From contig CAZFIR010000092.1 in NCBI GenBank assembly GCA_964519535.1, positions 1-34,261 of the forward strand: DNA of 34,261 nt. The letters run 5' to 3'. A program made the translations under genes and the position numbers. The DNA is from an uncultured Thermodesulfobacteriota bacterium (GTDB lineage Bacteria > Desulfobacterota > B13-G15 > RBG-16-54-18). The notes under the pieces were generated by a model, which saw only the letters and a list, made by a program, of their open reading frames with translations, made no database searches and was not told where the DNA came from. This document shows positions 1,081-34,008 of the stretch, one piece after another; position 1 is the first letter of the stretch; every line of letters begins with the position of its first letter.

Positions 1081-2244
1081 ATGTTGCCCATCAAGAATAT
1101 AAGGAGGATTATTGCCAAGGCCTCTCAGCAACCGACGTATGCCCTGCGGGCGGGCCGGATGCGCCTCTTGTCAAACTTGAGCTATCGCTTTCTAAGGGGT
1201 CGAAGCACGCCTCCTGAGACCGTCTCCCTGTTGCTCACCTATCAGTGCAATCTCAGATGCCAGATGTGTGGGCAGTGGGGCGAGCGGGGGAGCTTAAAAG
1301 ACCGCCCCCTTAGCGAGACCAAGGTCTATATGGATATTTCTATCATAGAAAGGCTCATCGGCGAGATCAAGGGCTTTCACCCAACCATTACCCTCTTTGG
1401 GGGAGAACCCTTGCTCCATCCCCAGTGGAAGGAGATCGTAACGCGGATCAAAAGGTCAGGCCTTCGCTGCAACATGATCAGCAACGGCATCCTGCTCAAA
1501 AAAAGGGCCGAGGACGCGGTCCAGTTGGATTTGGATGAAATCATTTTCTCCCTGGACGGTCCCTCCGGGGTGCATGATGCCATTCGGGGAGGGAAGGGTG
1601 TATTCAACAGGGCGTTGGAGGGTTTTCAATACCTCGCGGAGGTGAAGAAGAGATATGGGAAAAAGAGGCCGCGAGTGAATGTCAACACGGTTATCTGGGA
1701 GGAGAACCACACGATACTGGGTGATATCGTGGAGCAGGCGGGTCGTTTCGGGGCTCAAACAATCACCTTTCATCACCTCATCTTTGCCGACCAAGAGGCC
1801 TTTGATGAGACAGAGCGGATCACGCAGGCAGCCCTCAACTGCAATTCCCCTGATTGGGCCGGGTTCATCATGGATGAGCTGCCACGGATAGATCCAGAGC
1901 AGATCATTATGCAGAAACAGTTGATCGAACAGGAGAAAAACTCAGTGCCGGCCTTCTTCTATCCCAATTTCACCGATGAGGAGATCAGGGCGTACTATAC
2001 CTCTTTTAACTTCCTTCCGTCTTCGTATAAGCGGAGGTGTCTCAGTCCTTGGATGGTGGCCTACGTGCTCCCGGATGGATCGGTCAAGCCCTGTCTTAGT
2101 CTGGGTTATGAGATGGGAAACCTGAAGGAGGACAGTTTTCAGGAGATATGGAACGGAGACCGGGTGGTACGGTTTCGCCGTCTCCTCAAGGAAAGAGGCT
2201 ATTTCCCGGTCTGTCCCCGATGCACGGAGTTTAGTAGATTTTAG
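1081..2244 (+). CDS. Radical SAM protein with C-terminal SPASM/Twitch domain
   Basis: CNLRCQMC (CxxxCxxC), GGEP, SLDG; C-terminal CLSPW...DGSVKPC...GNL...IWNG...CPRC. Confidence 0.9.
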   Translation: MLPIKNIRRIIAKASQQPTYALRAGRMRLLSNLSYRFLRGRSTPPETVSLLLTYQCNLRCQMCGQWGERGSLKDRPLSETKVYMDISIIERLIGEIKGFHPTITLFGGEPLLHPQWKEIVTRIKRSGLRCNMISNGILLKKRAEDAVQLDLDEIIFSLDGPSGVHDAIRGGKGVFNRALEGFQYLAEVKKRYGKKRPRVNVNTVIWEENHTILGDIVEQAGRFGAQTITFHHLIFADQEAFDETERITQAALNCNSPDWAGFIMDELPRIDPEQIIMQKQLIEQEKNSVPAFFYPNFTDEEIRAYYTSFNFLPSSYKRRCLSPWMVAYVLPDGSVKPCLSLGYEMGNLKEDSFQEIWNGDRVVRFRRLLKERGYFPVCPRCTEFSRF

Positions 2245-2299: not shown

Positions 2300-3472
2300 T
2301 CATCGGTGTTGTGCGGTACAGTCCCGATGTCGTTCTCTTCCCTTCTGTCCGGGCATTATGAGGGATAATAAAATATCTTTGACGTTCTCGGTTTTATGTG
2401 GATGATACAGTCTGTCGGCCCATTCCAACCGATTCATCAACTCTCGGCCAATCTCATGTCCCAACAATTGTTCTTTGTATGTGGTGAAAGAAAAATCTTT
2501 GCTCTTGAGCGCGTGCGCTATGGAGTCGGCTGCTACATGCCCATACCCTAAGCTGAATGAGATCCCCTCACCCCACAAGGGATCAACCCCTGCGGCATCA
2601 CCGACCAGGAGCACCCTGTTGGCCGAGAAGATCGATGCGGGATGAAACCACCTAATTGGCCATCGCTCAATCCGACCTTCATTTAGTGAAATACCCTGCG
2701 CTGCCAAAAACTCGGCGATGATCTTTTTCAGGAGAGGGCCGTCCTTTTGCGAGGTGGAAAAACCGCCCACACCCGTGTTCAGCCATGTTTGGCCATGGAT
2801 TGCCACGGGGAAGGACCAGACATAACCTCGAATCCCATGCCGAAATGTACAAGAGAAATCAATGACTGCTTCCTGCTCTCTCTGTTCAGAAGGGTTCAGA
2901 CTGTCGGCACGCGTCATAAAACGCAGCGTCATGCCAGTGTTCCTTGGGCCCCGTTGCCCAGCGTTTTGGTAAAGCTTTCTGCGTATGATGCTTTGCGCAC
3001 CATCGGCGCCTACTAAAACCCGTGTAGTGAGACTGCGATTGGGAGTTTGCGCAACAATTGCTTCATCGCTGTATGAAAAGGAGATCACGGCCTCGTTCTG
3101 GGCAACTGCAACGCCCAGATCCATTGCTGTGCGGACTAACGTCTCATCAAATTCTTCTCTGATTACCGTCCGCAATCCGCCCCCATCAAGGCAATATTCC
3201 ACATAGCCGTCATCATCAAGGGCGATGCGTGTCCTTTGAACAGTCAAGGATGCTATCGTCATCTTGATGCCAAGGTGCTGTAACCAGTAGTCAGTATATG
3301 CACCAATTCCTCCCCCGCAGATTTTCTTTCGGGGATGGGTTTCTTTTTCCAGTACTATCAGACGATCGCATATTGACGGGAGGAGCTTAGTCAGATGTAT
3401 GGCCGTCGAGATACCGGCAGGTCCGGAACCGACGACGATGCAGTCATATTCTGTTTCTCTCGAGCTGCCCAT
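2300..3472 (-). CDS. FAD-dependent oxidoreductase, geranylgeranyl reductase family
   Basis: GSGPAG Rossmann motif, PRKKICGGGI, GADG, LVGDAAG-DPLWGEGI. Confidence 0.85.
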   Translation of the reverse strand: MGSSRETEYDCIVVGSGPAGISTAIHLTKLLPSICDRLIVLEKETHPRKKICGGGIGAYTDYWLQHLGIKMTIASLTVQRTRIALDDDGYVEYCLDGGGLRTVIREEFDETLVRTAMDLGVAVAQNEAVISFSYSDEAIVAQTPNRSLTTRVLVGADGAQSIIRRKLYQNAGQRGPRNTGMTLRFMTRADSLNPSEQREQEAVIDFSCTFRHGIRGYVWSFPVAIHGQTWLNTGVGGFSTSQKDGPLLKKIIAEFLAAQGISLNEGRIERWPIRWFHPASIFSANRVLLVGDAAGVDPLWGEGISFSLGYGHVAADSIAHALKSKDFSFTTYKEQLLGHEIGRELMNRLEWADRLYHPHKTENVKDILLSLIMPGQKGRERHRDCTAQHR

Positions 3473-3571
3473 AATTCAGTGCACCGTTTTCAGGAGATTT
3501 GCGACCAATGGTACTGGAATAGTCGGATTGTATAATCATGACCTCAGTAGGACAAATTTTAGATATGAGTT

Positions 3572-4471
3572 TCACGAATGTGAGGTCTCTTTGCCAACCT
3601 CCCAAGCCCTTGATGTTAAGGCGTAATGTAGGCTGATATTCTCTATGTCCTTTGCAATTATTTCATCTTCTACAAGGCAAAGGGCGACAGAGATGGGGTT
3701 TAGCTGATATGATTGGCTCAAGATATAATTCAAGATTTGTACGTGGCTGTAGGCCAGGCTAAGCCGACGGTTATTCAGGAGGCGAACAAATCTGGTAGGG
3801 CGTTGCGGATTAAAATGTAATAGACGTCTTCCATCGCCCTCAAAGGAGATATGGAGTAGGTTGGACCCCTCGATAAATACCTGCACCGCATCTCGAAGTT
3901 TGAGCTTGCCCATGAGTGCGGTATTGTTGAAGTCCAGACGGTCAAGGAAAGGATATATCTCTATACTAGTTCTTCCATCGAAATACATATCAATCCCAAA
4001 CGGAAATTCCTCATGGACCAGATAATCGCGGATGCCATCCAGGGGTGGATGTAGCAAGAGGGCCTGATCTATCTTTTCAGGGCATTCCCTGACGATAAGA
4101 TAACACTTGACCTTCGAATCATTCGTGTTCGTTTTATAATCCAGACCTAGGCCTATTGCTACCACCCCTGAGAAGTCGCGGCCATTGTCAGTGATTTGAG
4201 ACAGCATACTATGGTTTAAACGTACGTTTTTACACCGTGAAATTTCGTGGAGAAAATCGTATATTTTTAGAAGGCCTTCTTGGATATCTTGTTGTTCATA
4301 TCCCAACCTGAGCCTTCCCGCATGGATACCTTGGGGGGAGATCTTAACTGAGCATTCCAGTATAGAACAGGGGGGTGTAGATAATAATGCTTCGAACAGC
4401 TGAAAAAAAGTATTATCCTCTAATCCGTACTCTTTTTTATGGAAATCATAGACGAGGATTAATGGGTTCAT
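3572..4471 (-). CDS. LynF/TruF/PatF family peptide prenyltransferase
   Basis: ~300 aa with the motif order recalled for cyanobactin F-proteins: H...LF, ILECSVKI...AGRL, DFSGV..GLGLDYK..DSKVK, PEKIDQAL, GIDMYFDGRTSIEIYP. Recognised by eye. Confidence 0.8.
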   Translation of the reverse strand: MNPLILVYDFHKKEYGLEDNTFFQLFEALLSTPPCSILECSVKISPQGIHAGRLRLGYEQQDIQEGLLKIYDFLHEISRCKNVRLNHSMLSQITDNGRDFSGVVAIGLGLDYKTNTNDSKVKCYLIVRECPEKIDQALLLHPPLDGIRDYLVHEEFPFGIDMYFDGRTSIEIYPFLDRLDFNNTALMGKLKLRDAVQVFIEGSNLLHISFEGDGRRLLHFNPQRPTRFVRLLNNRRLSLAYSHVQILNYILSQSYQLNPISVALCLVEDEIIAKDIENISLHYALTSRAWEVGKETSHS

Positions 4472-4575
4472 GCAGGGGTTATCTCGGTTGCTACATATAT
4501 CAGGAGGAGATGATCCTTCTTGTTGCAGAGCTGAGGCACTTGTCTATTTCATGTCCTCACTCAAGCAACAAAAAT

Positions 4576-4740
4576 CTAGGAAATCTGAGAGGTTGAACAA
4601 GTGGTATTCCAAATCGTCTGACAGTTGTTAGTATACGCACCGCCTCTGGTACTTGATTTGCACAGCTGGAGGATCGCTTCCTCTGCCCTCCCCTTAAACA
4701 ACACGATCAACTTGGGTTTCGTCCAGCGCTTGTTTTTCAT
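4576..4740 (-). CDS. Putative RiPP precursor peptide A (54 aa)
   Basis: Hand translation: MKNKRWTKPKLIVLFKGRAEEAILQLCKSSTRGGAYTNNCQTIWNTTCSTSQIS*. GGAGG RBS; paralog at 5138-5299; lies in an RRE/rSAM cluster. Confidence 0.88.
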   Translation of the reverse strand: MKNKRWTKPKLIVLFKGRAEEAILQLCKSSTRGGAYTNNCQTIWNTTCSTSQIS

Positions 4741-4815
4741 CGTTTATATCCTCCGTCTTTTTTATACTATGAACTGATCGCTTATTGTTGTAGCCAACAA
4801 ACATCTATCTCGTTG

Positions 4816-4843
4816 ATTATATCATATTTTTTATTACATGCAA
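4816..4843 (-). promoter_or_regulatory. Sigma70-type promoter of precursor A
   Basis: Minus strand TTGCAT-16 bp-TATAAT with extended -10 (TGA-TATAAT). Confidence 0.6.
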
Positions 4844-4889
4844 TTTTTTGCCCCAGTTTTTGGAAATCATTATGCCTTGGATTGGGTCC

Positions 4890-5010
4890 CCTATCAAAGA
4901 TTCTGAAGTAGCAAGGGCCCCTCGTTTCTTTATGGGTGTCAGCCCTGGCGTGAGCAGCCTGGCAGAATGAGGTAACCGCTCCAGGTATCTGGAGGGCAGG
5001 ATGAGCGAGC
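4890..5010 (-). pseudogene. Degenerate duplicated 3' end of the radical SAM gene at 5458-6600
   Basis: Translation AHPALQIPGAVTSFCQAAHARADTHKETRGP aligns with the rSAM C-terminus AHASLETGEMDAPIIYFCRVAHARAEALKTAKGP. Confidence 0.7.
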
Positions 5011-5137
5011 TTGTTGCTCAGTTGATGCACTTGTCTATTCCAGGCCCCAACTTGTCCTGCTCCTTGAATTTAAAGTCTAAGGAAAGCAGCCGGAGGTGGC
5101 CCTTTGGCCAGATGTCGCGAAGCGACACAGTAAAAAT

Positions 5138-5299
5138 CTAGGAAGCAGTCTGAGTAGAACATGGTCGACTACCATGCCTACAAGGGTCTTGTTTTGGGCC
5201 AGATACGCCCTGCCACTTACACGACAGAAGTACCGCTTCCTCCGGCCTTCCCTTAAACAACGCTACTAATTTGGGTTTTGTCCAGCGCTTGGTCTTCAT
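5138..5299 (-). CDS. Putative RiPP precursor peptide B (53 aa)
   Basis: Hand translation: MKTKRWTKPKLVALFKGRPEEAVLLSCKWQGVSGPKQDPCRHGSRPCSTQTAS*. GGAGG RBS; leader nearly identical to precursor A. Confidence 0.88.
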   Translation of the reverse strand: MKTKRWTKPKLVALFKGRPEEAVLLSCKWQGVSGPKQDPCRHGSRPCSTQTAS

Positions 5300-5374
5300 C
5301 TTTTTTAATGGCCTCCGTCTTTGATACTATGAACTGATTACTTTTCTGTAGCACTAAGACATCCCATTGTTGTA

Positions 5375-5403
5375 ATTATAGCATATTTTTATCTGCATGA
5401 TAA
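5375..5403 (-). promoter_or_regulatory. Extended -10 promoter of precursor B
   Basis: Minus strand TGC-TATAAT, with TTATCA 17 bp upstream of the -10; same position relative to the ATG as in copy A. Confidence 0.55.
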
Positions 5404-5457
5404 GCAACATTTGGCCCATATTTTTGGGAAGCACTATGCTTTGGGAATAACCCTATG

Positions 5458-6600
5458 TCAGCGCTCCCGAGTCAGCAAGGGGCCTTTTGCTGTCTTAAGT
5501 GCTTCAGCCCTGGCATGGGCGACCCGGCAGAAATAGATAATTGGCGCATCCATTTCCCCGGTCTCAAGTGAGGCGTGGGCAGGGCACCACATACAGAGAT
5601 TGATCAAAGGACATACCCGACACGTCTTTAGAAACTCGTCTCTTTCCGATTGCATTGCCCGCACCTGGGGGATAAAGCATTGCCAGGCATCGGTGAGGGT
5701 CCCTTGTTTCAGGTCATAGACACAATCGGGGTGCCAGACGGATGAGCAGAGGCGAAAAAGGCCGTCGTAGCTGAGGCTGAAACTATCGCTTCCTGCACCG
5801 CAATGGAAGAGGTGGTTACATGTTGTATGGGAAAATTGTTGGTCAATGAGTTTGTCACACCCTTTTTCCAGGGCCTGAAACCGCTCTGGATCAGACTGTT
5901 CCAAGGCTACGATTTCTTCGGGAGAGAGCCTTTCGGCCTTAATCTCAGCATTTCTTACAGGGTTCCCGTCATATCTCAGGTGTAGAAACGGATCAAAGCG
6001 GAAGTAGTCCTTTGTTCTTTCTCTGCAGAAGCGGGCAATCGCCGGCTGTTCATGGAGATTGGAACGCAGGGCCATGGCCTTAAGACGCACGTTCAGCCCG
6101 CTTTTCATGAGGAGCTTGAGTCCTCGACGAAAGGCTGCAAAAGAGCCTGCCTTGCGAGTTACCCCCTCATAGGATTCCTTGCTGCATCCGTAGACCGAGA
6201 CCTCGATATCCCTCGGTGGATACTCCTTGAATAGTTTGATATGCTCTTTTGTTACCAGGGTGGCATTGGTAAAAACCGAGATCAAAAGCCCCTTCTTCTT
6301 GAGGTAGAGATAGATATCGGGGAAATCATCCCTCAGGAGGGGCTCACCTCCGGTGATCAGGCACCACAAGGCGCCGAGGGATACGGCCTCCGTTCCTATT
6401 CCTTGTATCTCTTGCAGAGAGAATTCCTTTTCTTTTGCCTCTTTATCCGCAGCCGGAAGGTTGATGTAACAGTGGCGGCAGTTGTTGTTGCACCGGGCGG
6501 TAATCTCCAGGTCAAAGGAGATGAGCGCTCTTTTCTCTCGCATCTTCTTCCAGAGGGGAAGGTCATGTAAGGCAGCGGATGAAACATACGATTCACTCAC
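5458..6600 (-). CDS. Radical SAM/SPASM peptide maturase (paralog 2)
   Basis: CNNNCRHC, TGGEP; SPASM Cx17C...Cx2Cx5Cx2Cx18C. Confidence 0.9.
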   Translation of the reverse strand: MSESYVSSAALHDLPLWKKMREKRALISFDLEITARCNNNCRHCYINLPAADKEAKEKEFSLQEIQGIGTEAVSLGALWCLITGGEPLLRDDFPDIYLYLKKKGLLISVFTNATLVTKEHIKLFKEYPPRDIEVSVYGCSKESYEGVTRKAGSFAAFRRGLKLLMKSGLNVRLKAMALRSNLHEQPAIARFCRERTKDYFRFDPFLHLRYDGNPVRNAEIKAERLSPEEIVALEQSDPERFQALEKGCDKLIDQQFSHTTCNHLFHCGAGSDSFSLSYDGLFRLCSSVWHPDCVYDLKQGTLTDAWQCFIPQVRAMQSERDEFLKTCRVCPLINLCMWCPAHASLETGEMDAPIIYFCRVAHARAEALKTAKGPLLTRER

Positions 6601-7156
6601 CGGGCCGACTCCTCATAAAAAAACGCACAAAACGCCAGACGGGGTTTAGTAGGGGTAAAAGCCCTTTGCGAATCACGAAGGCTATGATAAAACGATCCGG
6701 GCCGAGGCCGAGAGAGATGTATTTTCCGTTTCTCTCCACCTTAGTCACACGTCCCAAGATTGCTGCCCTGGAGATTAAGCCGTCTCCCTCTGGAGCATTA
6801 TCCCCCTTGGTGAGGTAAGAGCCAGCCTTTTTCCCTATTATTCGATGGATGATGAGCTTGCCGGTATGGGGATGCGTGAAGACCACCACATCACCAAAAC
6901 CGGGGGCAGATGTCTGTACGGGGGTAATGGTGAGGACATCGCCATCCTTGATAAAGGGGGACATACTGAAACCCTTGCCTTGAAACCTGAAGCACGCCCC
7001 CTTACTCAGCACACCTCGCATGAGTTTTTCGAGATGTTGGCTGGGGAGAGATAGTTCCTTTCCTCTCTTAATAACAAGGGCTGGTTTCTCCTGAGCGTCG
7101 TGCAAGGTATGTGATGACGGAGTGTTCATAGTATTTAACACATAACCTAACGGCAC
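6593..7156 (-). CDS. S24/S26 family peptidase (signal peptidase I-like, Ser/His type); start uncertain
   Basis: GFSMSPFIKDGD...GDVVVF...IIHRI...TKGDN..D...ILGRV; no obvious N-terminal transmembrane helix. Confidence 0.8.
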   Translation of the reverse strand: MPLGYVLNTMNTPSSHTLHDAQEKPALVIKRGKELSLPSQHLEKLMRGVLSKGACFRFQGKGFSMSPFIKDGDVLTITPVQTSAPGFGDVVVFTHPHTGKLIIHRIIGKKAGSYLTKGDNAPEGDGLISRAAILGRVTKVERNGKYISLGLGPDRFIIAFVIRKGLLPLLNPVWRFVRFFMRSRPGE

Positions 7157-7171
7157 ATAAAGAACGGGTTA

Positions 7172-7480
7172 TTACGAAGAGGCTTCAACGATCATCTTCC
7201 TCTTGAGGAGTTCTTCTGCAAGCCCGATGACATCCTTCTCGATCTCGTCGGGCGGCGCCTCATATTCTGCAGAGAGCTCGTCTGCTACCGCCTTCAAGCT
7301 CTTTTTGCCGTCCAGCTTTGCCCAGATGGCCCTTCCGGTTTCATTCAGGGTAAAGAGTTCGTCCTCCATATCCCCCATGCCGGCAACCAGGGGGACGATG
7401 ATGAGTTCTCCCTCAATCTCCCGGCACACCAGGTCCGCCGACGGGCAATAGGCGGCATCAAAGTTGACCTTTGTTTTCAT
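7172..7480 (-). CDS. Stand-alone PqqD family protein (RiPP recognition element)
   Basis: 102 aa, REIEGELIIVP...LFTLNETGRAIWAKLDG...L...Y....IEKDV...L; GGAGG RBS. Confidence 0.92.
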   Translation of the reverse strand: MKTKVNFDAAYCPSADLVCREIEGELIIVPLVAGMGDMEDELFTLNETGRAIWAKLDGKKSLKAVADELSAEYEAPPDEIEKDVIGLAEELLKRKMIVEASS

Positions 7481-7529
7481 AAAGACCTCCTTACATAGTT
7501 ATCGTATGGCTCGAGACCAAATCACCTTT

Positions 7530-8333
7530 TCATGCAGACAGAGGTGAATCAGAAGGGGTCTTCCTTAGCACTGTCCCTCCTATCAATATCTCTTCCGCGA
7601 TGCGGAGGTGTATCACCTCAAATCCACCCTCTGCAAATTCCGACTTGACCTCATCCTCTTGTGAGAAGGCGTGGATGAACTCTATATTGTTTGAGAGCGT
7701 ATCACCCTTTTCATACCAGAGATTACCCAATGTGAAGAAGGCAACGACCTTTCTGACAAGCTCCCATAGATGTGCAGGTCCATCCTTTGTAGCCCAGCGG
7801 AACTGGCATATGAAATATCCCCCAGGTTTAAGGGCCTTGCCGATCCTCTGGAGCATCTCTACACGCCTGCCCCTGGTGGGGACGCAGGAATACATGGCTG
7901 CAGAGAGCCAGGCGACGTCGTAGGCCTCCGCAGGCACGTCAATCTTGGAGATTTCCTGAACAAGCCCTTCCATCTTCACCCCGTGGCGGCCAGCATTCTC
8001 CTTGGCCTTCTCGACCAGCGCGGGGACAAAGTCAACACCCGTTACCGCAAAGCCCATCTGTGTCAAGGGAATGGCCTCCCTTCCACCTCCCACACCGAGG
8101 AGGAGGAGTCTGCCTCCTGTTAGGTGAAGCCTCGCCAGAAGAGCTTGCTCATCGGGATGCAGGATCGGGTACGCCAGGTCTTGACGGCCACAGTCCTCCA
8201 CCATCTTCTCTCTTGCATAGGTTTGCCGACTGAACTCCACCAAATCATTGGGCCTCATCACCACAACGGCCAGAGACTGTATAAAACGACCAAAACGAAT
8301 CAGAAAACGTCCGAAGAGGATCCTCGGTCTCAT
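7530..8333 (-). CDS. Class I SAM-dependent methyltransferase
   Basis: LLLGVGGGRE motif I variant, VTGVDF, LKPGG. Confidence 0.85.
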   Translation of the reverse strand: MRPRILFGRFLIRFGRFIQSLAVVVMRPNDLVEFSRQTYAREKMVEDCGRQDLAYPILHPDEQALLARLHLTGGRLLLLGVGGGREAIPLTQMGFAVTGVDFVPALVEKAKENAGRHGVKMEGLVQEISKIDVPAEAYDVAWLSAAMYSCVPTRGRRVEMLQRIGKALKPGGYFICQFRWATKDGPAHLWELVRKVVAFFTLGNLWYEKGDTLSNNIEFIHAFSQEDEVKSEFAEGGFEVIHLRIAEEILIGGTVLRKTPSDSPLSA

Positions 8334-8377
8334 GGTTTCACTTTGATTTCCTGCTTTTTTTCATTGCGGCTTAGATA

Positions 8378-9613
8378 TCAACTCTTCGTGTAAGACCTGG
8401 CTACCGCATGGCTTGTCTTCGGGCTGGCAAGCTTGCCATCTGAAAAGTTTTGTATCCTTTCTTCCCAATCATCTATCTGCCAGGCTCGCTCGCCTTCGTC
8501 AAGCAACCCCAGGGCCCGCGCCTGCGCGTGCGCGATCTCGCAGTGATACTCTACCCGGGTATCCAGCGTTCCATGTTCCATCCATGACCGGGCTGGGCAC
8601 TGTTCGCAGAGGCCCTGCAAAAAACAGTGGGCACAGCGGGTGAGGTAGTCGTGGTTGTCGGTCTGTATCTTTCTTATCCTCGGAAAAAAATTTATCAGGG
8701 CATCTTTGAGCGAGCCTCTTTTTAGATCGTACACTGTGTCTGGGTGCCTCAGCAGCATGCACAACTGTAGATGTCCATAGGCATCCACGCATCCGCTCCT
8801 TACCCCTGCTCCACAGGAGAAGATGTTGCTCCCCGAGGGCCTGGTAAACTGAGAGCAGAACTCCCGCATCTCTTTCAGATATTCTTCGCGACGCCTGAAA
8901 AAGAATGCTACTGCCTCATCAGGTGAGAGTCTGAGCTTCTTAATAGAAATATTCTTTTGCCGGGAGTCGCGGCGAGCGCGAAGATCAAAAAAAATGGAGT
9001 AGGAAGTCACTGTATCCATCCAGGGGATGGTGGAGGCCCACGATTCAAACTCCTCTGTTTCTTCTCTGTTTGGTGGAAGAAGCGCGCCTTTGACCACAAA
9101 AGGAACCTTTTTCTCTAACAGCAAATGTATCCCTCGCCAGGCCGCTTCGAAAGAACCCGAAACCCTGGTAACAGACTCATAGGAACTCCTTTTCATCCCA
9201 TAGAGGGTGACCTCGATAGGCTGAAGAAGCGGGATGCGTGTAAATACCTTGGAGAGGGCGGGAGTGATCAACGTGGCGTTGGTAAGAAGGATCACGCGCA
9301 GGCCGAGTTTTCGGGTAAAGATGTAGAGGTCTTCAAAATCTTTTCTCAAGAGAGGTTCACCTCCCGTGAACCTCACTGTCAGACAGCCTAAGGAAGCAGC
9401 TTCTTGCAGAATCTCCTGTATCTCCTTTGTCGAGAGTTCCCGTTGTTGGGCATTAAGATCTGCCGCAGGCAGATTGATATAGCAGTGGATGCAGTTGTTG
9501 TTGCAGCGTTCAGTTAGCTCCATGTCAAGCGAGTCGAGAGCGGAAGCGTTACCTCTCCGCGGGGAGACCTCATCGGCCCTTATTTTAACGGCATAAGAAT
9601 CTTGATTGCCCAT
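8378..9613 (-). CDS. Radical SAM/SPASM peptide maturase (paralog 1)
   Basis: CNNNCIHC, TGGEP; SPASM CGAG...C...CAHC-x5-CEQC-x18-C; clear paralog of 5458-6600. Confidence 0.9.
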   Translation of the reverse strand: MGNQDSYAVKIRADEVSPRRGNASALDSLDMELTERCNNNCIHCYINLPAADLNAQQRELSTKEIQEILQEAASLGCLTVRFTGGEPLLRKDFEDLYIFTRKLGLRVILLTNATLITPALSKVFTRIPLLQPIEVTLYGMKRSSYESVTRVSGSFEAAWRGIHLLLEKKVPFVVKGALLPPNREETEEFESWASTIPWMDTVTSYSIFFDLRARRDSRQKNISIKKLRLSPDEAVAFFFRRREEYLKEMREFCSQFTRPSGSNIFSCGAGVRSGCVDAYGHLQLCMLLRHPDTVYDLKRGSLKDALINFFPRIRKIQTDNHDYLTRCAHCFLQGLCEQCPARSWMEHGTLDTRVEYHCEIAHAQARALGLLDEGERAWQIDDWEERIQNFSDGKLASPKTSHAVARSYTKS

Positions 9614-9664
9614 TATTTTTCGACCCTAAATGCAAAAAAAAGTCAGGGATCAACATCAATATAG

Positions 9665-10672
9665 TTACAGGTGCCTTAAAAGGTCTATGACGTCGCCATC
9701 TTTAGTAAAGTGGAGGAAATAACAGGGGACTTCATGGGCAATCCGGTCCACCAAGGCAAGCATCTGCTCCCACCAATCGGCCGTGCCCAGGGGTTTTATC
9801 AGGCAGGCCAGGAGCATTCCGATGATCTCTTGCTTGTGATCAAGGGGCATGAGACGGTTTTCCCTGTCCTGCTTCAGAAAAAGAATGGCCTTTAATGGGG
9901 CGGCGTCTGCCGAAACATCAGGGACATCACCGTGACTCCAGGTCCCGTGGATTTTGAAGCCCTTTGGCCATCGTCTGACAATTATTCGGTCATCGCACAG
10001 GACCTTTGCTTTATCCTGCAACATCATTACCATGGTGGACTTGCCTGCATCCGAATGACCGACGAAGAGTATGCCCTTGCCGTCAAGCACCACGCCGCTG
10101 GCATGGATATAACAGCCCTCCCTGTCGGCAAGAACCCTGGCAAGGAGGATCTGGTCGGTGGGAAAGAGGGTGAGGGAGTGGAGGTTGCCCTTGCGAAAGG
10201 CCCTTTCCGTTTTGTTGTAAACCTTGATATCGCTATAGTCATGGTTAAATACCGCGAGTTGGTGGATGTTGCTTTCTATAACAGAGCCTGAAGGGGAAGA
10301 TCCCATTTGTTTTGATTTTTGGCGAGACCTTTGATATAAGCGGTGCCGTATTCTGGGCCACAGACGATTAATCGCGCCCCCCACATCCCCTGAAATCCCG
10401 GCGTAGAACCAGGAAGCCCCCTTTTTGTAAATGGCCCAAGGGGGCTTGCGATAGACCTCTTTTCCTATATCCCAATTGCGTAGATCCGGTATGGAGAAGT
10501 GATGTCTGATGGTAATGGTATCCTTCCCCGGTCTATTCACCTCGAAGTGTTTAAACTTGGGATGGAAGGTGGTATCTGTTATGGGCAAATCCGCTTCCAG
10601 TCTGATGGTGATACCGGCAATGTGATAGTAGCGGTGGTCCAATGCCTGAGTTTTTTCCGCCATCCTTTGCAT
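9665..10672 (-). CDS. HprK-related P-loop kinase-like protein
   Basis: IHASGVVLDGKGILFVGHSDAGKST...VLCDD: His, Walker A and DD arrangement typical of HPr kinase-like domains. Confidence 0.72.
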   Translation of the reverse strand: MQRMAEKTQALDHRYYHIAGITIRLEADLPITDTTFHPKFKHFEVNRPGKDTITIRHHFSIPDLRNWDIGKEVYRKPPWAIYKKGASWFYAGISGDVGGAINRLWPRIRHRLYQRSRQKSKQMGSSPSGSVIESNIHQLAVFNHDYSDIKVYNKTERAFRKGNLHSLTLFPTDQILLARVLADREGCYIHASGVVLDGKGILFVGHSDAGKSTMVMMLQDKAKVLCDDRIIVRRWPKGFKIHGTWSHGDVPDVSADAAPLKAILFLKQDRENRLMPLDHKQEIIGMLLACLIKPLGTADWWEQMLALVDRIAHEVPCYFLHFTKDGDVIDLLRHL

Positions 10673-10740
10673 TCTCCCCTATTGTTAGCTGAGGCCGGCT
10701 ATTTACATTTAATGTCTTAAAAATTATGTAATTTGTTACA

Positions 10741-10769
10741 ATTTTATCACATAATTTGCTTGACTGCAA
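10741..10769 (-). promoter_or_regulatory. Sigma70-type promoter of the RiPP maturase operon, overlapped by a 9-bp inverted repeat
   Basis: Minus strand TTGCAG-17 bp-TAAAAT with TG extension; AAATTATGT (10721-10729) / ACATAATTT (10749-10757) inverted repeat. Confidence 0.55.
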
Positions 10770-10836
10770 GGCGTGCAAGAGTCAACAGGTCAACCAACGC
10801 AAAATGATCTCACCCGTCTTCCATTCGTGACCTTGA

Positions 10837-11667
10837 TCACGCAAGGGCATCCTTCAGGAGCTTAAGGCACTTCTTCAATCTATCGCCGATAATCTTGAGG
10901 GAGATGCCCTGCGGGAAGAATATTTCATTCAAGGCCGCGCTCTTTTTTTTCGACTGGAAAAGAAAGAGGAGGTCGCCGAAGTTCTGATTGGACTTTCCCC
11001 CCTTGATCCTCTTCAGAATCCATCGCTCTCCAAAGGAGAGGTTTCCATTCCAGGATGGGAAGAGGTCCGAGCGTAGGAAGCTGAGATAATACAGTGTCCG
11101 CTCCGCCCCCATCTTTTTGGCCTCGGAGAGTATTGCCTCGTCGGAGAGCCCATAGTATTCTTTTATCCGCTTCAGATCCTCCCATCCCATCTGAGAGCCG
11201 AAGGAGTGGCTCTGGAGGTGGATAGCGGTGGAGATGAAGAGGTGTGTGGGGCAGGGTATCTTGACCTCCATGCCTTCCAGTTTTATGGTGATGCTCCTTT
11301 CAAAGACATCCTTGACGGAAATCGTGAGACAGGAGCGTTCAAGGATGGTGCGGGAAGGATTGAGGAAGGAGGTGTGTAGGTCGAGGAGAAGGCCTGGCTT
11401 ATCGAAGACCCCCGGCTCTATCTCCTCAAACCCCATCCCTTTCAAGCCCTTTTTGAGCAGTGCAATATCCCTTTCCCGGACCAAGACGTCCACGTCGAGC
11501 ATTCCCCGATCCCCCAGAGAGGGGTAGACATCGCCGAGGAGGCTTACCCCTCTGAAAAAGAGGACCTCAGGTCCTTTCTTTTTCAGGCCCTCGATTACTT
11601 CTTTGAGGTGGTGGATGGTGATGAGATTTTGGGAGGCCGTTGCATAAAAAGAGATTGCCCTTTTCAT
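10837..11667 (-). CDS. Nucleotidyltransferase family protein (NTP_transf_5-like)
   Basis: FRGVSL..VYP..GDRGMLDVDVLV...LDLH...HLQSHSF; start ATG at 11667 overlaps the GT4 stop (ATGA). Confidence 0.8.
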   Translation of the reverse strand: MKRAISFYATASQNLITIHHLKEVIEGLKKKGPEVLFFRGVSLLGDVYPSLGDRGMLDVDVLVRERDIALLKKGLKGMGFEEIEPGVFDKPGLLLDLHTSFLNPSRTILERSCLTISVKDVFERSITIKLEGMEVKIPCPTHLFISTAIHLQSHSFGSQMGWEDLKRIKEYYGLSDEAILSEAKKMGAERTLYYLSFLRSDLFPSWNGNLSFGERWILKRIKGGKSNQNFGDLLFLFQSKKKSAALNEIFFPQGISLKIIGDRLKKCLKLLKDALA

Positions 11668-12791
11668 CTGGTGTTTTCTACGACTTGATGGTAGATATCG
11701 AGGGTTTTCTGAAGGCATACGTTCCAGTCGAAGAGGGTCTCAACCCGCCTTCTGCCTTTTTTCCCTATCTGTTTCCTGAGATCGGGCGCATTGATGAGCC
11801 GGATAGTTTCCTGCGCAAGAGCTTTTGTATCTTCGGGCTTTACCAGGATGCCTCCCTCACCCACCACCTCGGGCAGCCCCCCTACAGACGTTGCAATGAC
11901 GGGCTTGGCAGAGGCCATGGCCTCTACAGCGGCTAGGTTGAACCCGTCATTGAGGGATGGAATGATAAGGAGATCAAGGGCGGCGATGACATCGGGGATG
12001 TCCTTACGGTGGCCCACAAAGTGAAAATGAGGTAGCCCCTGTGTTTTTTTGATCAACTCCTCTTTCATGGGGCCATCCCCTGCCATGATGAAGTGGGTCT
12101 GGGGAAGGGTGCGCCCTATGCTCATGACCGCCTCGACAAAGAGGTGAGGTCCTTTTACCTCCTCCAATCTCCCCACAAAGCCCACGAGAGGAACCTGCCT
12201 TTTTATCTGTAATTCATTCCTTACCTTTTTTTCATCGCCAGGAAACCGTTGCAGATTTATTCCATTAAAAATGGTGACCACCTTTTTCGCGTCGCCGATT
12301 CCCCTCTTCAGGTATTCACGGCGTTCGTCTTCGGAGATGGTGATGATCCTGGCACAGAATCGGGCAACCAGTTGCTCGAGCAAGACGTAGAATCGCTCTT
12401 TTCCCTTTTCGAAATATCCGTAAAAGAGGTGGCCGTGGGGGGTATGTATCGTCCTGGTGCGGGTCACTCCCCCTGCCACCCTCCCCAATACCCCCGCCTT
12501 GGTGGTATGGGTATGCAGGAGTGTTGGTCTCTCTCGGCGGATGAGGGCAATGATCTCGAAGAAGGCAAGGAGATCATGCACAGGAGCGATATCGCGGCGC
12601 AGATGGGGTAGGGGATGATAGGGTATGTGAAATCTCCGGGAGAACTGTTGTGGGTCTTCCTCGGGCTGGCGGGAGGGTCCAGAGGCCATGACGATATCGA
12701 CCCCCTGTTGCTTGAGGCCTTTGAGCAGTTTTAGAAATATCCAGGGTGCCCCGCCCTGATCCAATCTAGTTATCAGGTGTAGGACCTTCAC
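11664..12791 (-). CDS. Glycosyltransferase family 4
   Basis: VLHLITRLDQGGA, LHTHTTKAG, GRLEEVKG, DGFNLAAVEAMA. Confidence 0.9.
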   Translation of the reverse strand: MKVLHLITRLDQGGAPWIFLKLLKGLKQQGVDIVMASGPSRQPEEDPQQFSRRFHIPYHPLPHLRRDIAPVHDLLAFFEIIALIRRERPTLLHTHTTKAGVLGRVAGGVTRTRTIHTPHGHLFYGYFEKGKERFYVLLEQLVARFCARIITISEDERREYLKRGIGDAKKVVTIFNGINLQRFPGDEKKVRNELQIKRQVPLVGFVGRLEEVKGPHLFVEAVMSIGRTLPQTHFIMAGDGPMKEELIKKTQGLPHFHFVGHRKDIPDVIAALDLLIIPSLNDGFNLAAVEAMASAKPVIATSVGGLPEVVGEGGILVKPEDTKALAQETIRLINAPDLRKQIGKKGRRRVETLFDWNVCLQKTLDIYHQVVENTR

Positions 12792-13837
12792 CCGCCCTTT
12801 TCTCTCTTCATCCTGCGGGTGGCCGCTATCTCCAAGATCGTCGCAAAGGAGAGGATGGCCAGGGCCTGCAGGAGGAGGACCCAGAAGTAGTCCGGGGCCA
12901 TCTTGATCAACAGGGCGTTCATCCCCAAGGCGATGGCCAGCAAATAGATGGTGAGCACCGTCTTGGTCTTGGATCCCAAGAGGTAATGGAGACGGTGATG
13001 GAGGTGGTCCTTTCCCGTGTACTCGAGAAGTTCTCGTAGGCTACCAACTTCCCTCATGATGATCCTGCGCAGATTGATATAGGCCATGTCGTAGATGACC
13101 ACGGCGAAGATCAACAGGGGGGCTGCGAGGGACGGCAAGAGCATCATCTCCGACCATTCGGCCAAGACCGCGAGAGAGGCAATGACGAAGCCTAAGACGT
13201 TGCTTCCGGTATCACCCAAGAAAATGGTTGCCCCCTTTTCCCCTCGAAAGTTATAGGGGAGAAAGCCAAGGCAGATGCCGATGATCATCAAACAGATGGG
13301 CAGCATATGGGACGATCCCATCTGGAGAAAGATGATGGAGAAGAGAAGGGCGAAAATAATGCTGAGACCTGCCGCCAGTCCATCCATGCCATCTATGAAG
13401 TTGACAGCATTGGTAATCCCCACAAGCCAGAGAACCGTCAGTGTGTAATTGAGGGTTGTACCCCACAGGGTCTTGGGGAAGATGACAATCGATACACCGA
13501 AGGCGATGAGGATGCCGGCAGCAGCAATTTGGGAAAGTAGCTTGGCTACAGCTGGCAGCTCTCTGGTATCGTCCCAGATTCCCACCACGAAGATGAAGCC
13601 CGCGGCGATGAGCAGACCCAAGATTTCCCCCTGTGGTTTTGTGAGCACGATTGCTGATAGGATGAACGAGATGAAGATGGCCCACCCGCCGGTCTTGGGC
13701 GTGGGGACGGTGTGGACCCGGCGCTGCTCAGGCATATCCATGATACCCCACCGTGTTCCCAACCATCTCGCCAGGGGGGTGAGAAGCAGCGAGAGAAGCA
13801 AGGGCATGATGAGTGCCGCGAAGAATTCTTTAACCAT
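12788..13837 (-). CDS. MraY/WecA family polyprenyl-phosphate sugar-1-phosphate transferase
   Basis: DMP..RRVH..PTP..GG, GIWDD, NAVNFIDGMDGL, FLGDTGS, HLHH; multiple hydrophobic segments. Confidence 0.92.
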   Translation of the reverse strand: MVKEFFAALIMPLLLSLLLTPLARWLGTRWGIMDMPEQRRVHTVPTPKTGGWAIFISFILSAIVLTKPQGEILGLLIAAGFIFVVGIWDDTRELPAVAKLLSQIAAAGILIAFGVSIVIFPKTLWGTTLNYTLTVLWLVGITNAVNFIDGMDGLAAGLSIIFALLFSIIFLQMGSSHMLPICLMIIGICLGFLPYNFRGEKGATIFLGDTGSNVLGFVIASLAVLAEWSEMMLLPSLAAPLLIFAVVIYDMAYINLRRIIMREVGSLRELLEYTGKDHLHHRLHYLLGSKTKTVLTIYLLAIALGMNALLIKMAPDYFWVLLLQALAILSFATILEIAATRRMKREKGG

Positions 13838-32123: not shown

Positions 32124-33175
32124 GCTGCATTCAAGGAGCAAGTGCAACACATTCCTTAAAGACCTCTTTCGGGGTTTTATAGTTTAGGATCTTACGAGGT
32201 CTGTTATTGAGCAAGTCCTGGATCTGTTTGAGTTGCTCTGGAGAGATTGTCGCAAAATCTGTCTTCTTTGGCAAGTAGCGTCTGATAAGTCCGATGGCGT
32301 TCTCCACAGAGCCCTTTTCCCAGCTGTGGTATGGTTCACAGAAATATGAGTGGGTGCCGAGGGTTTTGTTGATGAGGCTATGTTCGCAATTCTCAGAGCC
32401 GTTATCATAGGTGATGGTCTTTCTCATATGGTCAGGGTGTCTGCTCAGACGGCGGATGAGGGCTAATCGTAACTCTCGGGCCGTTTTAGCCGCAAGCTTA
32501 GTGATCTGGAGGTAGCGGCTGGCTCGTTCTAGGGCAATAGCGAGGGAGGGTGTGCTTTTACGAGAGATCATGGTATCGACCTCCCAGTGGCCAGGTTCAC
32601 TTCGGTCATTGGCAGAGGCGGGACGCTCGTGGATGGATAACCGCTCGGGAATATGGGGTTTTTTGTGCTTCCGGGAATACCCCCGTTGAAGGCGTCTTCG
32701 GTGTCTGCGCAGCAGACAGGGCCTGAGATCCATATGGTTGAGGGTCTCTCGGGCATAGATAAACTGATAGATGGCCTCATGGCTGATGGATTCTTCTGCA
32801 AGATCATGGGAGATTCTCCCCGCTACTTGCTCAGGGCTTAAGCCGAGGGTAAGTTTCTCTATGACGTAGTTCATAATCACCTCATTCTTGAGCCGCGGTC
32901 GCTGAGCGGTGCGTTCTTTGCGTTTGACTGCACGATCATGGGCACGATGAGACAAATAGACATTGTACACAGGGGACTTATTTCGTTTGAGTTCTCGGCA
33001 GATGGTACTTTTATGACGTCCCACAACCTGCGCAATCTCACTCGGTTTTACCCCCTGTGCCCTGAGAACGGCTATGATATCCCGTTCCTCACTGGTTAAC
33101 TGTGTATAGTGTCTGTTCATAACCACTTAGGATATGCTATCATCCTAAGTGTTGCACTTGCTTATTGAACCGGCG
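32124..33175 (-). mobile_element. IS30 family insertion sequence (~1.05 kb)
   Basis: Inverted repeats TTCAAGGAGCAAGTGCAACAC (32130-32150) and GTGTTGCACTTGCTTATTGAA (33149-33169); TTA(G) on both sides (32121, 33176) as probable target duplication; exact ends uncertain by ~1 bp. Confidence 0.88.
32131..33126 (-). CDS. IS30 family transposase
   Basis: HTH (RHKSTICRELKRN), SPEQVAG, GHWEVDT, TITYDNGSE, SWEKGSVEN..GLIRRYLPK, LNNRPRK. Confidence 0.95.
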   Translation of the reverse strand: MVMNRHYTQLTSEERDIIAVLRAQGVKPSEIAQVVGRHKSTICRELKRNKSPVYNVYLSHRAHDRAVKRKERTAQRPRLKNEVIMNYVIEKLTLGLSPEQVAGRISHDLAEESISHEAIYQFIYARETLNHMDLRPCLLRRHRRRLQRGYSRKHKKPHIPERLSIHERPASANDRSEPGHWEVDTMISRKSTPSLAIALERASRYLQITKLAAKTARELRLALIRRLSRHPDHMRKTITYDNGSENCEHSLINKTLGTHSYFCEPYHSWEKGSVENAIGLIRRYLPKKTDFATISPEQLKQIQDLLNNRPRKILNYKTPKEVFKECVALAP

Positions 33176-33243: not shown

Positions 33244-34008
33244 GTGGATATCTCGGTTATCTTAGTGGTGAGAAATGAAGATGAGCAGATCAGAGAATGC
33301 CTCGAAACGGTTTCATGGGCTGATGAGATCGTGATCGTAGACCAGTCGAGCACTGATTTTACAGTAAAGATTTCGAAAGAGTTTACCGATAAGGTTTTTG
33401 TAACGGAGTCAAAGGGCTATTGCGAACCTGACAGAAACCTTGCTATAAAAAAGGCATCTAGCAGGTGGATATTCTATATAGATGCTGACGAAAGGGTATT
33501 GCCTGAACTCAAGGATGAGATCTTATCGATTGTAAGATCCGATGCCCCCCGGCCGGCCTACTATGTAAAAAGGAGAAACTATTTCCTCGGTAAATGGATC
33601 AAAACTTGCGGATGGTACCCTTCTCCAGTATTGAGATTATTTAAAAAAGGTGAGGTGATATTCCCCAATGAGATCCACCAGGTTCCTCTACACAGGGAGG
33701 AATATGGATATCTTAAAAACGACCTTCTTCATTATTCATATAGCAGTCTTGAAGAATACTTTGAGAAGTTTAATCGATACACGACACAACTTGCAAAGGA
33801 GGAATTTGAAGCCGGCAAAAGGATAACGGTATTTAATTTTATATCCAACTTTTTATTACGACCATCATATTATTTTTTATTGAAATATATCTATTATAGA
33901 GGCTATAAGGATGCATTCAGGGGTTTTTTTATTGCCTTTTCAACTGCGCTTACAGTATTTGTGAATAAAGCAAAACTTTGGGAAATGAAATGGAAAAACG
34001 AAAGATAA
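33244..34008 (+). CDS. Glycosyltransferase family 2 (KdtX/beta-1,4-glucosyltransferase-like)
   Basis: RNE..I.ECL, VD.SSTD.T, IDADE, RLF...IH, LLHYSY, KFNRYT. Confidence 0.9.
   Translation: MDISVILVVRNEDEQIRECLETVSWADEIVIVDQSSTDFTVKISKEFTDKVFVTESKGYCEPDRNLAIKKASSRWIFYIDADERVLPELKDEILSIVRSDAPRPAYYVKRRNYFLGKWIKTCGWYPSPVLRLFKKGEVIFPNEIHQVPLHREEYGYLKNDLLHYSYSSLEEYFEKFNRYTTQLAKEEFEAGKRITVFNFISNFLLRPSYYFLLKYIYYRGYKDAFRGFFIAFSTALTVFVNKAKLWEMKWKNER

Follow-up and report, generated by a model that had tools for sequence, protein, structure and literature searches.

Gene content and precursor peptides

The DNA analyzed here, referred to as the window, is the 34,261-nucleotide (nt) stretch of contig CAZFIR010000092.1 (positions 1 to 34,261; assembly GCA_964519535.1) of an uncultured Thermodesulfobacteriota bacterium, and the system in question is a group of minus-strand genes that the initial annotation had read as a candidate hybrid cluster for peptides made on the ribosome and modified after translation (RiPPs). 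Translation of the open reading frames (ORFs) recovered all ten co-oriented genes at the coordinates claimed, and hidden Markov model (HMM) searches with Pfam and NCBIfam/TIGRFAM profiles and their curated cut-offs, which we used for all family assignments, reproduced the family given for every gene (Table 1). The gene of the second radical S-adenosylmethionine (SAM) enzyme shares 8 nt with the peptidase gene, and the remaining gaps between enzyme genes are 15-104 nt. The G+C content around the prenyltransferase and precursor genes is 0.44-0.47, compared with 0.49-0.53 in the neighboring DNA. An eleventh gene, encoding an NTP_transf_5 protein, lies outside the span first proposed and probably belongs to the system. 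No YcaO protein, PatA/G-type protease, lasso cyclase, or ATP-binding cassette (ABC) exporter was found in the scanned ORFs of the window, in agreement with the initial annotation.

Table 1. Positions of the cluster genes and associated features in the window and of candidate precursors beside SynChlorMet (Scm) cassettes. L-numbers are labels of the loci compared; G-numbers in the text are labels of genomes in the phylum sample.
Feature	Position	Strand	Evidence
Geranylgeranyl-reductase-like flavin adenine dinucleotide (FAD) enzyme	2300-3472	-	TIGR02032 140.4 bits (cut-off 158.8); Pfam FAD_binding_3 52 bits
F-family (cyanobactin-type) peptide prenyltransferase	3572-4471	-	PF19156 78.8 bits (cut-off 28.8); TIGR04445 106.6 (cut-off 140)
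Precursor peptide 2, 54 amino acids (aa)	4576-4740	-	Profile match E 5.9e-28
Precursor peptide 1, 53 aa	5138-5299	-	GGAGG upstream; member of the 16-sequence family; profile match E 1.7e-27
Promoter-like site TTATCA-17-TATAAT, TG before	5375-5403	-	76 nt upstream of the precursor 1 ATG
Radical SAM/SPASM maturase 2	5458-6600	-	Radical_SAM 75.7 bits; ScmE 76.6 (cut-off 400)
S24/S26-type serine peptidase, presumed leader peptidase	6593-7156	-	TIGR02228 52.8 bits (cut-off 51.85); Peptidase_S24 27.6 bits
PqqD-type RiPP recognition element (RRE)	7172-7480	-	PF05402 60.5 bits
Class I SAM methyltransferase, optional tailoring enzyme	7530-8333	-	Methyltransf_25 49.6 bits
Radical SAM/SPASM maturase 1	8378-9613	-	Radical_SAM 70.3 bits
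ScmC/HprK-like P-loop protein, presumed peptide Ser/Thr kinase	9665-10672	-	TIGR04249 40.8 bits (cut-off 125)
NTP_transf_5 (PF14907) nucleotidyltransferase-like protein	10837-11718	-	Pfam 79.6 bits (cut-off 31.2)
Scm candidate precursor	L078:10818-10970		
Scm candidate precursor	L080:7024-7296		
Scm candidate precursor	L083:9433-9648		
Scm candidate precursor	L079:8730-8939	-	
Scm candidate precursor	L084:1383-1622		
Scm candidate precursor	L085:5774-6046	-	
Scm candidate precursors	L064:172-408 and 1529-1789 (-)		
Scm candidate precursor	L072:2469-2738	-	

The two small ORFs, which had been noted as Cys-containing paralogues, encode three Cys each and lie within a tandem duplication of about 560 nt, in which each precursor ORF was copied together with its upstream and downstream DNA. 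Each copy retains a GGAGG ribosome-binding site and, 76 nt ahead of its start codon, an extended -10 element (TGnTATAAT). The site upstream of precursor 1 obtained the top score (10/12) of the regional promoter scan, and the duplicated copy at 4816-4840 has kept TGATATAAT at the same distance from precursor 2. A 53-nt element (repeat D2; 4509-4561 and 5000-5052, 75% identical) is found 3' of each precursor gene. RNA folding downstream of the precursors gave hairpins no better than shuffled sequences (z -1.8 and -0.65), and we propose no attenuator there; a terminator scan found 9 sites against a shuffle mean of 11.5, which is fewer than in shuffled DNA. An 82-aa ORF at 4782-5030 (-) was rejected as a gene and is probably not one; it overlaps the duplicated intergenic repeats D2 and D4, and its tblastn matches in other loci fall mostly inside the 3' end of maturase 2.

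Alignment of 16 precursors from the window and eight related loci (nine genomes) showed a leader-core pattern. The first 28 residues are nearly fixed, MKTKVWTKPKLVVLFKGRPEEAVLQVCK, with the consensus MK.K.W.KPKL..L..G..EE.VL..CK; the leader box, C27, K28, C40, and C48 are invariant, and the last residue is Ser or Thr in all 16, while the core is otherwise variable. The spacing Cys-x5-Ser/Thr-COOH, as read from the alignment, occurs in 14 of these precursors. Homologous peptides stand at the equivalent position in each of the eight related genome loci, precursor 2 has seven other called homologues (74-81% identity), and a profile search of the whole genome returned these two copies only. Judged by this conservation pattern, the small ORFs are real precursor peptides, as had been supposed.

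To describe the family at large, a profile built from the 16 peptides was run against a library of 1.84 billion proteins; it found 2377 representative clusters in metagenomes at E ≤1e-3, of which 59 reached E ≤1e-10. Among the best 150 of the 2377 matches, 128 are no longer than 75 aa; the last residue is Ser in 100 of these and Thr in 26, together 126 of the 128. The CK box that closes the leader consensus is present in 122 of the short matches; from its Cys onward, 71 of them contain three Cys, 45 contain four, and six contain five, and the Cys-x5-Ser/Thr-COOH end is found in 111. None of the NCBIfam and Pfam models matches these peptides, and a full-text literature search for six precursor motifs found no paper. 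The result defines a very large, unnamed RiPP precursor family of 2377 clusters with a rigid Cys-x5-Ser/Thr-COOH end, which, together with the matching enzyme set, is ready for heterologous expression.

Conservation of the locus and its enzymes

In all eight genome loci compared, which come from metagenome-assembled genomes (MAGs) of Thermodesulfobacteriota/Deltaproteobacteria, the genes are kept in the order HprK-like protein, radical SAM enzyme 1, (methyltransferase), PqqD protein, peptidase, radical SAM enzyme 2, precursor(s), prenyltransferase, and reductase. The same order is found in 12 metagenome loci wherever these are long enough, a set that includes the window's own contig and several duplicates of the genome loci. 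The reductase gene follows the prenyltransferase gene in nine of the 12, and the other three (L053, L059, and L061) end too early. As this order recurs in 8/8 genome loci and in all metagenome loci of sufficient length, the cluster is more than a chance arrangement.

We counted the components across 401 evenly sampled genomes of the phylum and found the prenyltransferase in eight, maturase 2 or its paralogue in 16, and a match to the precursor profile in 11. Of the 11 genomes with a precursor match, 10 also have a close maturase-2 orthologue, the exception being G276 (no match at E ≤1e-60); one genome (G031) has the orthologue with no precursor match. Six genomes contain a maturase-2 orthologue (54-65% identity) with no prenyltransferase match. 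Their loci (L044-L049) carry the HprK-like, radical SAM 1, and PqqD genes and often genes for a peptidase, a third radical SAM enzyme, and an ABC exporter. Precursors of the same family are present in four of these six loci, one each in L045 and L048, two in L046, and three in L047, and none was found in L044 or L049. An ABC exporter adjoins the relative in L046 and probably those in L045 and L049 (ORFs of 591-600 aa). In L002-L005, an extra precursor copy follows the reductase gene, which places the prenyltransferase/reductase pair inside the precursor array. On this distribution, and given the lower G+C content around the prenyltransferase and precursor genes, we read the pair as an accessory tailoring module that would have been added to an older core.

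The prenyltransferase is the component that links the cluster to cyanobactins. The expectation that it would match F-family models was borne out: besides the PF19156 match, the profile of its clade aligned with 15 solved F-family enzymes over nearly the full length, including 8ye0 (E 5e-41), LimF (6e-35), PirF (1e-29), PagF (6e-27), PatF (7e-13), and FjoF. Its 92 homologues (38-100% identity) in a set of 5.8 billion proteins are nearly all metagenomic, and two are named as Deltaproteobacteria MAG proteins. The precursor cores linked to the enzyme have a biased composition compared with the general family: Trp or Tyr is present in 16/16 linked cores against 77/127, Arg in 16/16 against 64/127, and Asp in 4/16 against 95/127. 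This bias is a hint as to the prenyl acceptor, to be read with the relatedness of the 16 sequences in mind. A metagenomic protein that is 72% identical to the prenyltransferase (P0024, 524 aa) is fused at its C terminus to a CMAS-type methyltransferase (PF02353, 43 bits), a family that acts on lipid double bonds; the methyltransferase of the window has no homology to that domain (E 0.16).

The flavoenzyme encoded next to the prenyltransferase is related to prenyl reductases. For all nine homologues compared, the four best NCBIfam families are prenyl reductases (TIGR02032, BchP/ChlP, the archaeal lipid reductase, and MenJ), matched over the full length, and TIGR02032 is the top family in 9/9, with a best E value of 2.4e-45. 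The motifs K-x-C-G-G and Y-x-W-x-F-P are invariant in the homologues, and we take them to be reductase hallmarks, halogenases presumably carrying W-x-W-x-I-P instead. A PDB search with the first 100 residues was uninformative. According to parts of a 2026 review (PMC13290415), NctPC is a peptide prenyltransferase fused to a terpene cyclase; the word "reductase" is absent from the main text of that review. Considering the family ranking, the CMAS fusion, and NctPC together, we suggest that further processing of a peptide-bound prenyl group is the most likely role of the flavoenzyme.

Maturases 1 and 2 are 43% identical to each other. Full-length matches to SPASM families (PapB, NirJ2, and TIGR04133) span the C-terminal CxxCx5CxxC of both, and the translation of maturase 1 also shows CxxxCxxC, whereas the Pfam SPASM model gave no score at E ≤0.01 on either enzyme. 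Maturase 1 scores 78.9 bits with ScmF, and the named maturase models stay under their cut-offs: 46.9 of 340 bits for PapB, 60.8 of 850 for AlbA, and 78.5 of 625 for StsB, with the PapB and StsB values belonging to maturase 1. Maturase 2 belongs to a populous family, with 5072 homologues at E ≤1e-20 among 8000 candidates scored, many more than the prenyltransferase has. The PqqD protein is 72-91% identical in six related loci. The peptidase passes the cut-off of TIGR02228 (signal peptidase I, archaeal/ER type), and its catalytic boxes SM.P, GDV, HR, and KGD are conserved in eight homologues. The window, L001, L004, and L007 have the methyltransferase gene; L003, L005, and L008 lack it. At its position in L005 (6472-7500), there is a weak radical SAM likeness (25% over 168 aa), with 20 stops in the frame tried.

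Another radical SAM/SPASM gene lies at 1081-2244 (+) of the window, with a tungsten-cofactor maturase as its best model (114 bits, cut-off 380). It neighbors the cluster in six of the eight related loci, beside a YsxC GTPase gene. We rejected it as a member of the system, as it is convergent and unmatched in L001 and L008. The third radical SAM genes of the loci without prenyltransferase match it weakly (21-28% identity); in L044, L045, L047, and L048 they lie directly upstream of the HprK-like gene, and in L044 and L045 both seem to fall within one long ORF of 669-691 aa.

The HMM matches of the HprK-like protein are weak (TIGR00679, E 1.5e-5; Pfam Hpr_kinase_C, E 0.004 and 17.1 bits against 33.3), and its profile found mostly P-loop matches to ABC transporters in the PDB, with a solved HprK at E 0.022. 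Across nine homologues, H190, GxSxxGKST, and DD are invariant, which we assume to be the HprK pattern. As to the NTP_transf_5 protein, its homologues in L001, L004, and L007 begin at residue 17-18 of the window ORF, and the true start is probably near 11667. The gene is located upstream of the HprK-like gene in five related loci and downstream of the reductase gene in L008. In L046, which has no prenyltransferase, it is directly upstream of the HprK-like gene and beside genes for a GDP-mannose dehydratase and an epimerase, and sugar-nucleotide genes flank that related cluster. A fusion of an S26-like peptidase to NTP_transf_5 (499 aa) is encoded at L017:8244-9743. In lasso systems, according to parts of PMC8498205, homologues of the HPr kinase place a phosphate on the C-terminal Ser of the precursor, and a nucleotidyltransferase extends this phosphate with hexoses, as in pseudomycoidin; nucleotidyltransferase-protease fusions occur as well. 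By analogy with this precedent, and because of the near-universal Ser/Thr end, the adjacent NTP_transf_5 gene (also in L046), and the fusion in L017, the invariant C-terminal Ser/Thr is most likely the phosphorylation site, and NTP_transf_5 is a probable member of the system.

Upstream of the cluster, the window carries a large polysaccharide locus (11664-32027 and 33244-34008) with genes for GT4, a WecA-type transferase, an aminotransferase, PIG-L, WbqC, a PEP-CTERM-like ATPase and exporter, Wzz/BY-kinase, Wzy, a flippase, and several glycosyl- and methyltransferases. The G+C content falls to 0.32-0.40 between 23 and 31 kb, and a transposase-like ORF (HTH_38 plus rve integrase core; 32131-33126, -) stands at the edge of this low-G+C region. 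Eighteen public DNA runs contain at least a quarter of the sampled words of 2300-11718, and all are labeled salt marsh metagenome; the best-matching runs may be the source sample. No RNA run is among the matches listed for this stretch.

Proposed pathway and its alternatives

We suggest, with a probability of roughly 0.6, that the locus is a RiPP biosynthetic cluster of a large, uncharacterized family related to SynChlorMet, to which a prenyltransferase/reductase pair has been added. Every chemical step of the following scheme is a proposal derived from the gene content, the homologies, the precursors, and the co-occurrence described above. The two precursors of 53-54 aa would be expressed from their own promoters, and the PqqD protein would bind the conserved leader and present them to the two paralogous radical SAM/SPASM enzymes, which may cross-link the three invariant Cys, most likely as thioethers. 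The ScmC/HprK-like protein would phosphorylate the C-terminal Ser/Thr, in the manner of HPr-kinase homologues acting on lasso precursors, and NTP_transf_5 may decorate this phosphate. In the present clade, the accessory prenyltransferase would put an isoprenoid on the cationic core, which always contains Trp/Tyr and Arg, and the flavoenzyme would then saturate one or more double bonds of the prenyl group. The methyltransferase could add a methyl group, and the S26-type peptidase could remove the leader.

Several observations weigh against this scheme. The scores for ScmC/D/E/F, PapB, AlbA, StsB, TIGR04445, and TIGR02032 are all under the curated cut-offs. The linked loci come from a few related lineages, so that their counts are not independent. 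The invariant core residues are limited to the Cys, Lys28, and the terminal Ser/Thr, and these are kept in the relatives without prenyltransferase as well, so that no acceptor is singled out. The NTP_transf_5 gene is 164 nt from the HprK-like gene and abuts the upstream glycosyltransferase gene, and it may belong instead to the polysaccharide operon. Candidate precursors of true Scm cassettes, which also have a ScmC protein, do not end in Ser/Thr, indicating that the link between the kinase and a C-terminal Ser is not universal in the superfamily. Finally, no exporter gene was found among the scanned ORFs of the window's cluster, and the cluster is without an immunity gene.

The flavoenzyme might take the peptide and not the prenyl group as its substrate, as a hydroxylase like QhpG, LodB, and GoxB or as a halogenase. 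The PDB profile search points in this direction and also against the scheme above, since the halogenases PltA (54.3 bits), CmlS (44.4 bits), and others ranked above the reductase 3oz2 (36.3 bits). The peptide-modifying flavoenzymes QhpG (46.9 bits, in 9/9 members), GoxB, and LodB are matched as well, and a Trp or Tyr is available in all 16 linked cores. However, the best E value of TIGR02032 (2.4e-45) far surpasses those of QhpG (1.3e-16) and CmlS (1.8e-13), the motifs that we regard as reductase hallmarks are invariant, and the enzyme is strictly paired with the prenyltransferase; we consider a direct action on the peptide unlikely. Quite improbable in our view is a transient phosphate that is eliminated so that the last Cys attacks the dehydro residue and closes a lanthionine-like ring at the C terminus. 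Phosphorylation followed by elimination is the established route of class II-IV lanthipeptide synthetases, and the fixed Cys-x5-Ser/Thr-COOH spacing (111/122 in the family and 14/16 in the linked precursors) would suit such a ring. The scanned ORFs showed neither a lyase nor a LanC-like cyclase domain, though, and the NTP_transf_5 partner suggests decoration of a retained phosphate; the known RiPP HPr-kinase homologues leave the phosphate on the peptide, according to parts of PMC8498205.

Two further explanations concern the purpose of the genes. The prenyltransferase/reductase pair, and possibly NTP_transf_5, could serve the lipid or polysaccharide metabolism of the neighboring envelope locus, given that geranylgeranyl-reductase relatives normally act on lipids, that a polysaccharide locus with a WecA-type polyprenyl-phosphate transferase is directly upstream, that same-family peptide clusters occur without the pair, and that NTP_transf_5 abuts a glycosyltransferase gene. 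Against this stand the characterized PF19156/TIGR04445 members, which are all peptide prenyltransferases, the insertion of the pair between precursor copies in L002-L005, and the two distant loci L017 and L018, where the prenyltransferase is again beside an Scm-like cassette with no conserved polysaccharide genes, which makes an envelope function very unlikely. We give hardly any credence to the idea that the peptides are scaffolds for an intracellular redox cofactor or signal, like pyrroloquinoline quinone and mycofactocin, and not secreted lipopeptides. It would agree with the resemblance of the PqqD and SPASM proteins to those of cofactor pathways, with the small genome (2.44 Mb), and with the finding of no exporter in the cluster. 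Cofactor precursors have invariant cores, however, whereas the present cores are hypervariable and come with several paralogues per locus, and ABC exporters stand beside the relatives in L046 and probably in L045 and L049.

We prefer the peptide-tailoring pathway over these alternatives, and its broadest form, a new RiPP class, is put forward here tentatively, at somewhat less than even odds. In this class, a six-part Scm-type core (RRE, twin SPASM enzymes, ScmC kinase, NTP_transf_5, and S26 peptidase) would generate Cys-bridged peptides with a phospho- or phosphoglycosyl C-terminal Ser/Thr and, in this clade, a saturated isoprenoid tail. If true, the product would be the first reduced-prenyl lipopeptide RiPP, and the prenyltransferase the first of the F family to act on radical-SAM-modified peptides in anaerobes. 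The locus places a cyanobactin-type prenyltransferase in uncultured anaerobic sediment bacteria beside radical SAM enzymes, and its pairing with a prenyl-reductase relative points to a follow-up step on peptide-bound isoprenoids, on which we found no paper. Enzymes of this kind are wanted as peptide-lipidation tools.

Relation to SynChlorMet and other peptide systems

The system closest in composition is the SynChlorMet cassette (Scm; TIGR04248-TIGR04251). The resemblance seen in the initial annotation holds for the set of components, namely a PqqD-type protein, two radical SAM/SPASM enzymes, and a ScmC-type P-loop protein, and for the homology of the last: hhalign of the window's HprK-like family against true ScmC gave 99.2% probability (E 8.8e-20) over the 155-column P-loop domain. 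It does not extend to membership, as all four Scm models are far under their cut-offs, with 40.8 of 125 bits for ScmC, 30.2 of 100 for ScmD, 76.6 of 400 for ScmE, and 78.9 of 400 for ScmF, and the N-terminal parts of the two ScmC-type families differ. True ScmC, scoring above the cut-off, occurs in 17 of the 401 phylum genomes, in contrast to about 40 bits for the window's protein. Eight larger stretches with true Scm cassettes mostly combine PqqD, ScmE, ScmF, ScmC, and an S26-like peptidase, and in four of them NTP_transf_5 adjoins the cassette; the inspected cassettes had no prenyltransferase or reductase match. Judged by sequence, the window's system is a diverged sibling of the SynChlorMet cassette and not a member of it.

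To our knowledge, the curators described the SynChlorMet cassette without an identified precursor. We found candidate precursors beside true Scm cassettes in eight of 14 such genomes inspected; the search model derives from five of these candidates and the peptides of L017 and L018, so that only three finds are independent. The candidates combine a leader containing (K/R)-Y-x-x-P-x-[LVI] with a core that is rich in Gly/Ser/Thr and contains 3-8 Cys, compared with the three Cys and the C-terminal Ser/Thr of the window's precursors, and the profile-profile similarity between the two sets is weak (probability 5%). No NCBIfam model matched the five candidates scanned. These peptides thus supply the SynChlorMet cassette with candidate precursors.

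The distant prenyltransferases of L017 and L018 (38-43% identity) are found beside cassettes that come closer to the Scm models (ScmF 307-335 and ScmE 224-233 bits, cut-off 400) and carry a Gly/Cys-rich small ORF of 77-78 aa. These two loci tie the prenyltransferase clade to Scm-type peptide cassettes in a second architecture. L017 also encodes an ABC exporter (9755-11458), and a further feature of these distant loci is at L018:1706-2314. The gene that follows the L017 prenyltransferase gene (12415-13452) does not encode a reductase; the 345-aa product matches squalene-hopene cyclase weakly, below threshold (E 0.0015), and nothing in the PDB.

In line with the initial annotation, which recognized no characterized class in this combination, our literature search found no paper on the enzyme combination or under the SynChlorMet cassette name, supplementary tables (e.g., the radical SAM compendium PMC10288494) lying outside its coverage. 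With the F-family pathways of cyanobactins (PagF, PirF, LimF, and LynF/TruF), the window has in common a prenyltransferase that passes the PF19156 gathering score and aligns over nearly the full length. The enzyme differs in its score for TIGR04445 (106.6, under 140), in its host, an anaerobic Thermodesulfobacteriota MAG, in its pairing with a reductase, and in its substrate, which would be a radical-SAM-modified peptide. The precursors belong to a family other than the PatE type, there is no PatA/PatG, and Peptidase_S8, domain-of-unknown-function (DUF), and YcaO matches were not found in the scanned ORFs. The parts of a 2024 review available (PMC11002830) treat the F family as cyanobactin enzymes.

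The systems of the lasso peptides paeninodin and pseudomycoidin pair, like the window's cluster, a nucleotidyltransferase-like protein with precursors ending in Ser; they also have an HPr-kinase homologue, whose counterpart here would be the HprK-like protein, and nucleotidyltransferase-peptidase fusions are known both from lasso systems and from L017 (lasso data from parts of PMC8498205). An Asn-synthetase-like cyclase and a transglutaminase-like B protease were not found in the scanned ORFs, the HprK likeness is weak by HMM, and the scaffold of the window's peptides is built on Cys and would be processed by radical SAM enzymes. Sactipeptides and ranthipeptides have in common with the window an RRE, radical SAM/SPASM maturases, and Cys-bearing cores, and partial accounts give two maturases per pathway for thuricin CD and ruminococcin C as well. 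Here the difference is in the maturases themselves, for which PapB, AlbA, and StsB are far under cut-off and solved relatives match the radical SAM core only.

Prenylated lanthipeptides (MppC; PMC12715784) and NctPC (PMC13290415), as portrayed in parts of these papers, are RiPP systems outside the cyanobactins that, like the window, use an alpha-beta-beta-alpha prenyltransferase, and NctPC indicates that a peptide-bound prenyl group can be processed further. The window has radical SAM enzymes in place of the lanthionine synthetase, and its follow-up enzyme is reductase-like. The geranylgeranyl reductases (ChlP/BchP, archaeal digeranylgeranylglycerophospholipid (DGGGPL) reductase, and MenJ) are the best families for this flavoenzyme and share its FAD-binding fold. 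It falls under the TIGR02032 cut-off and is set in a peptide cluster instead of lipid, chlorophyll, or quinone synthesis, and its substrate would be a prenylated peptide.

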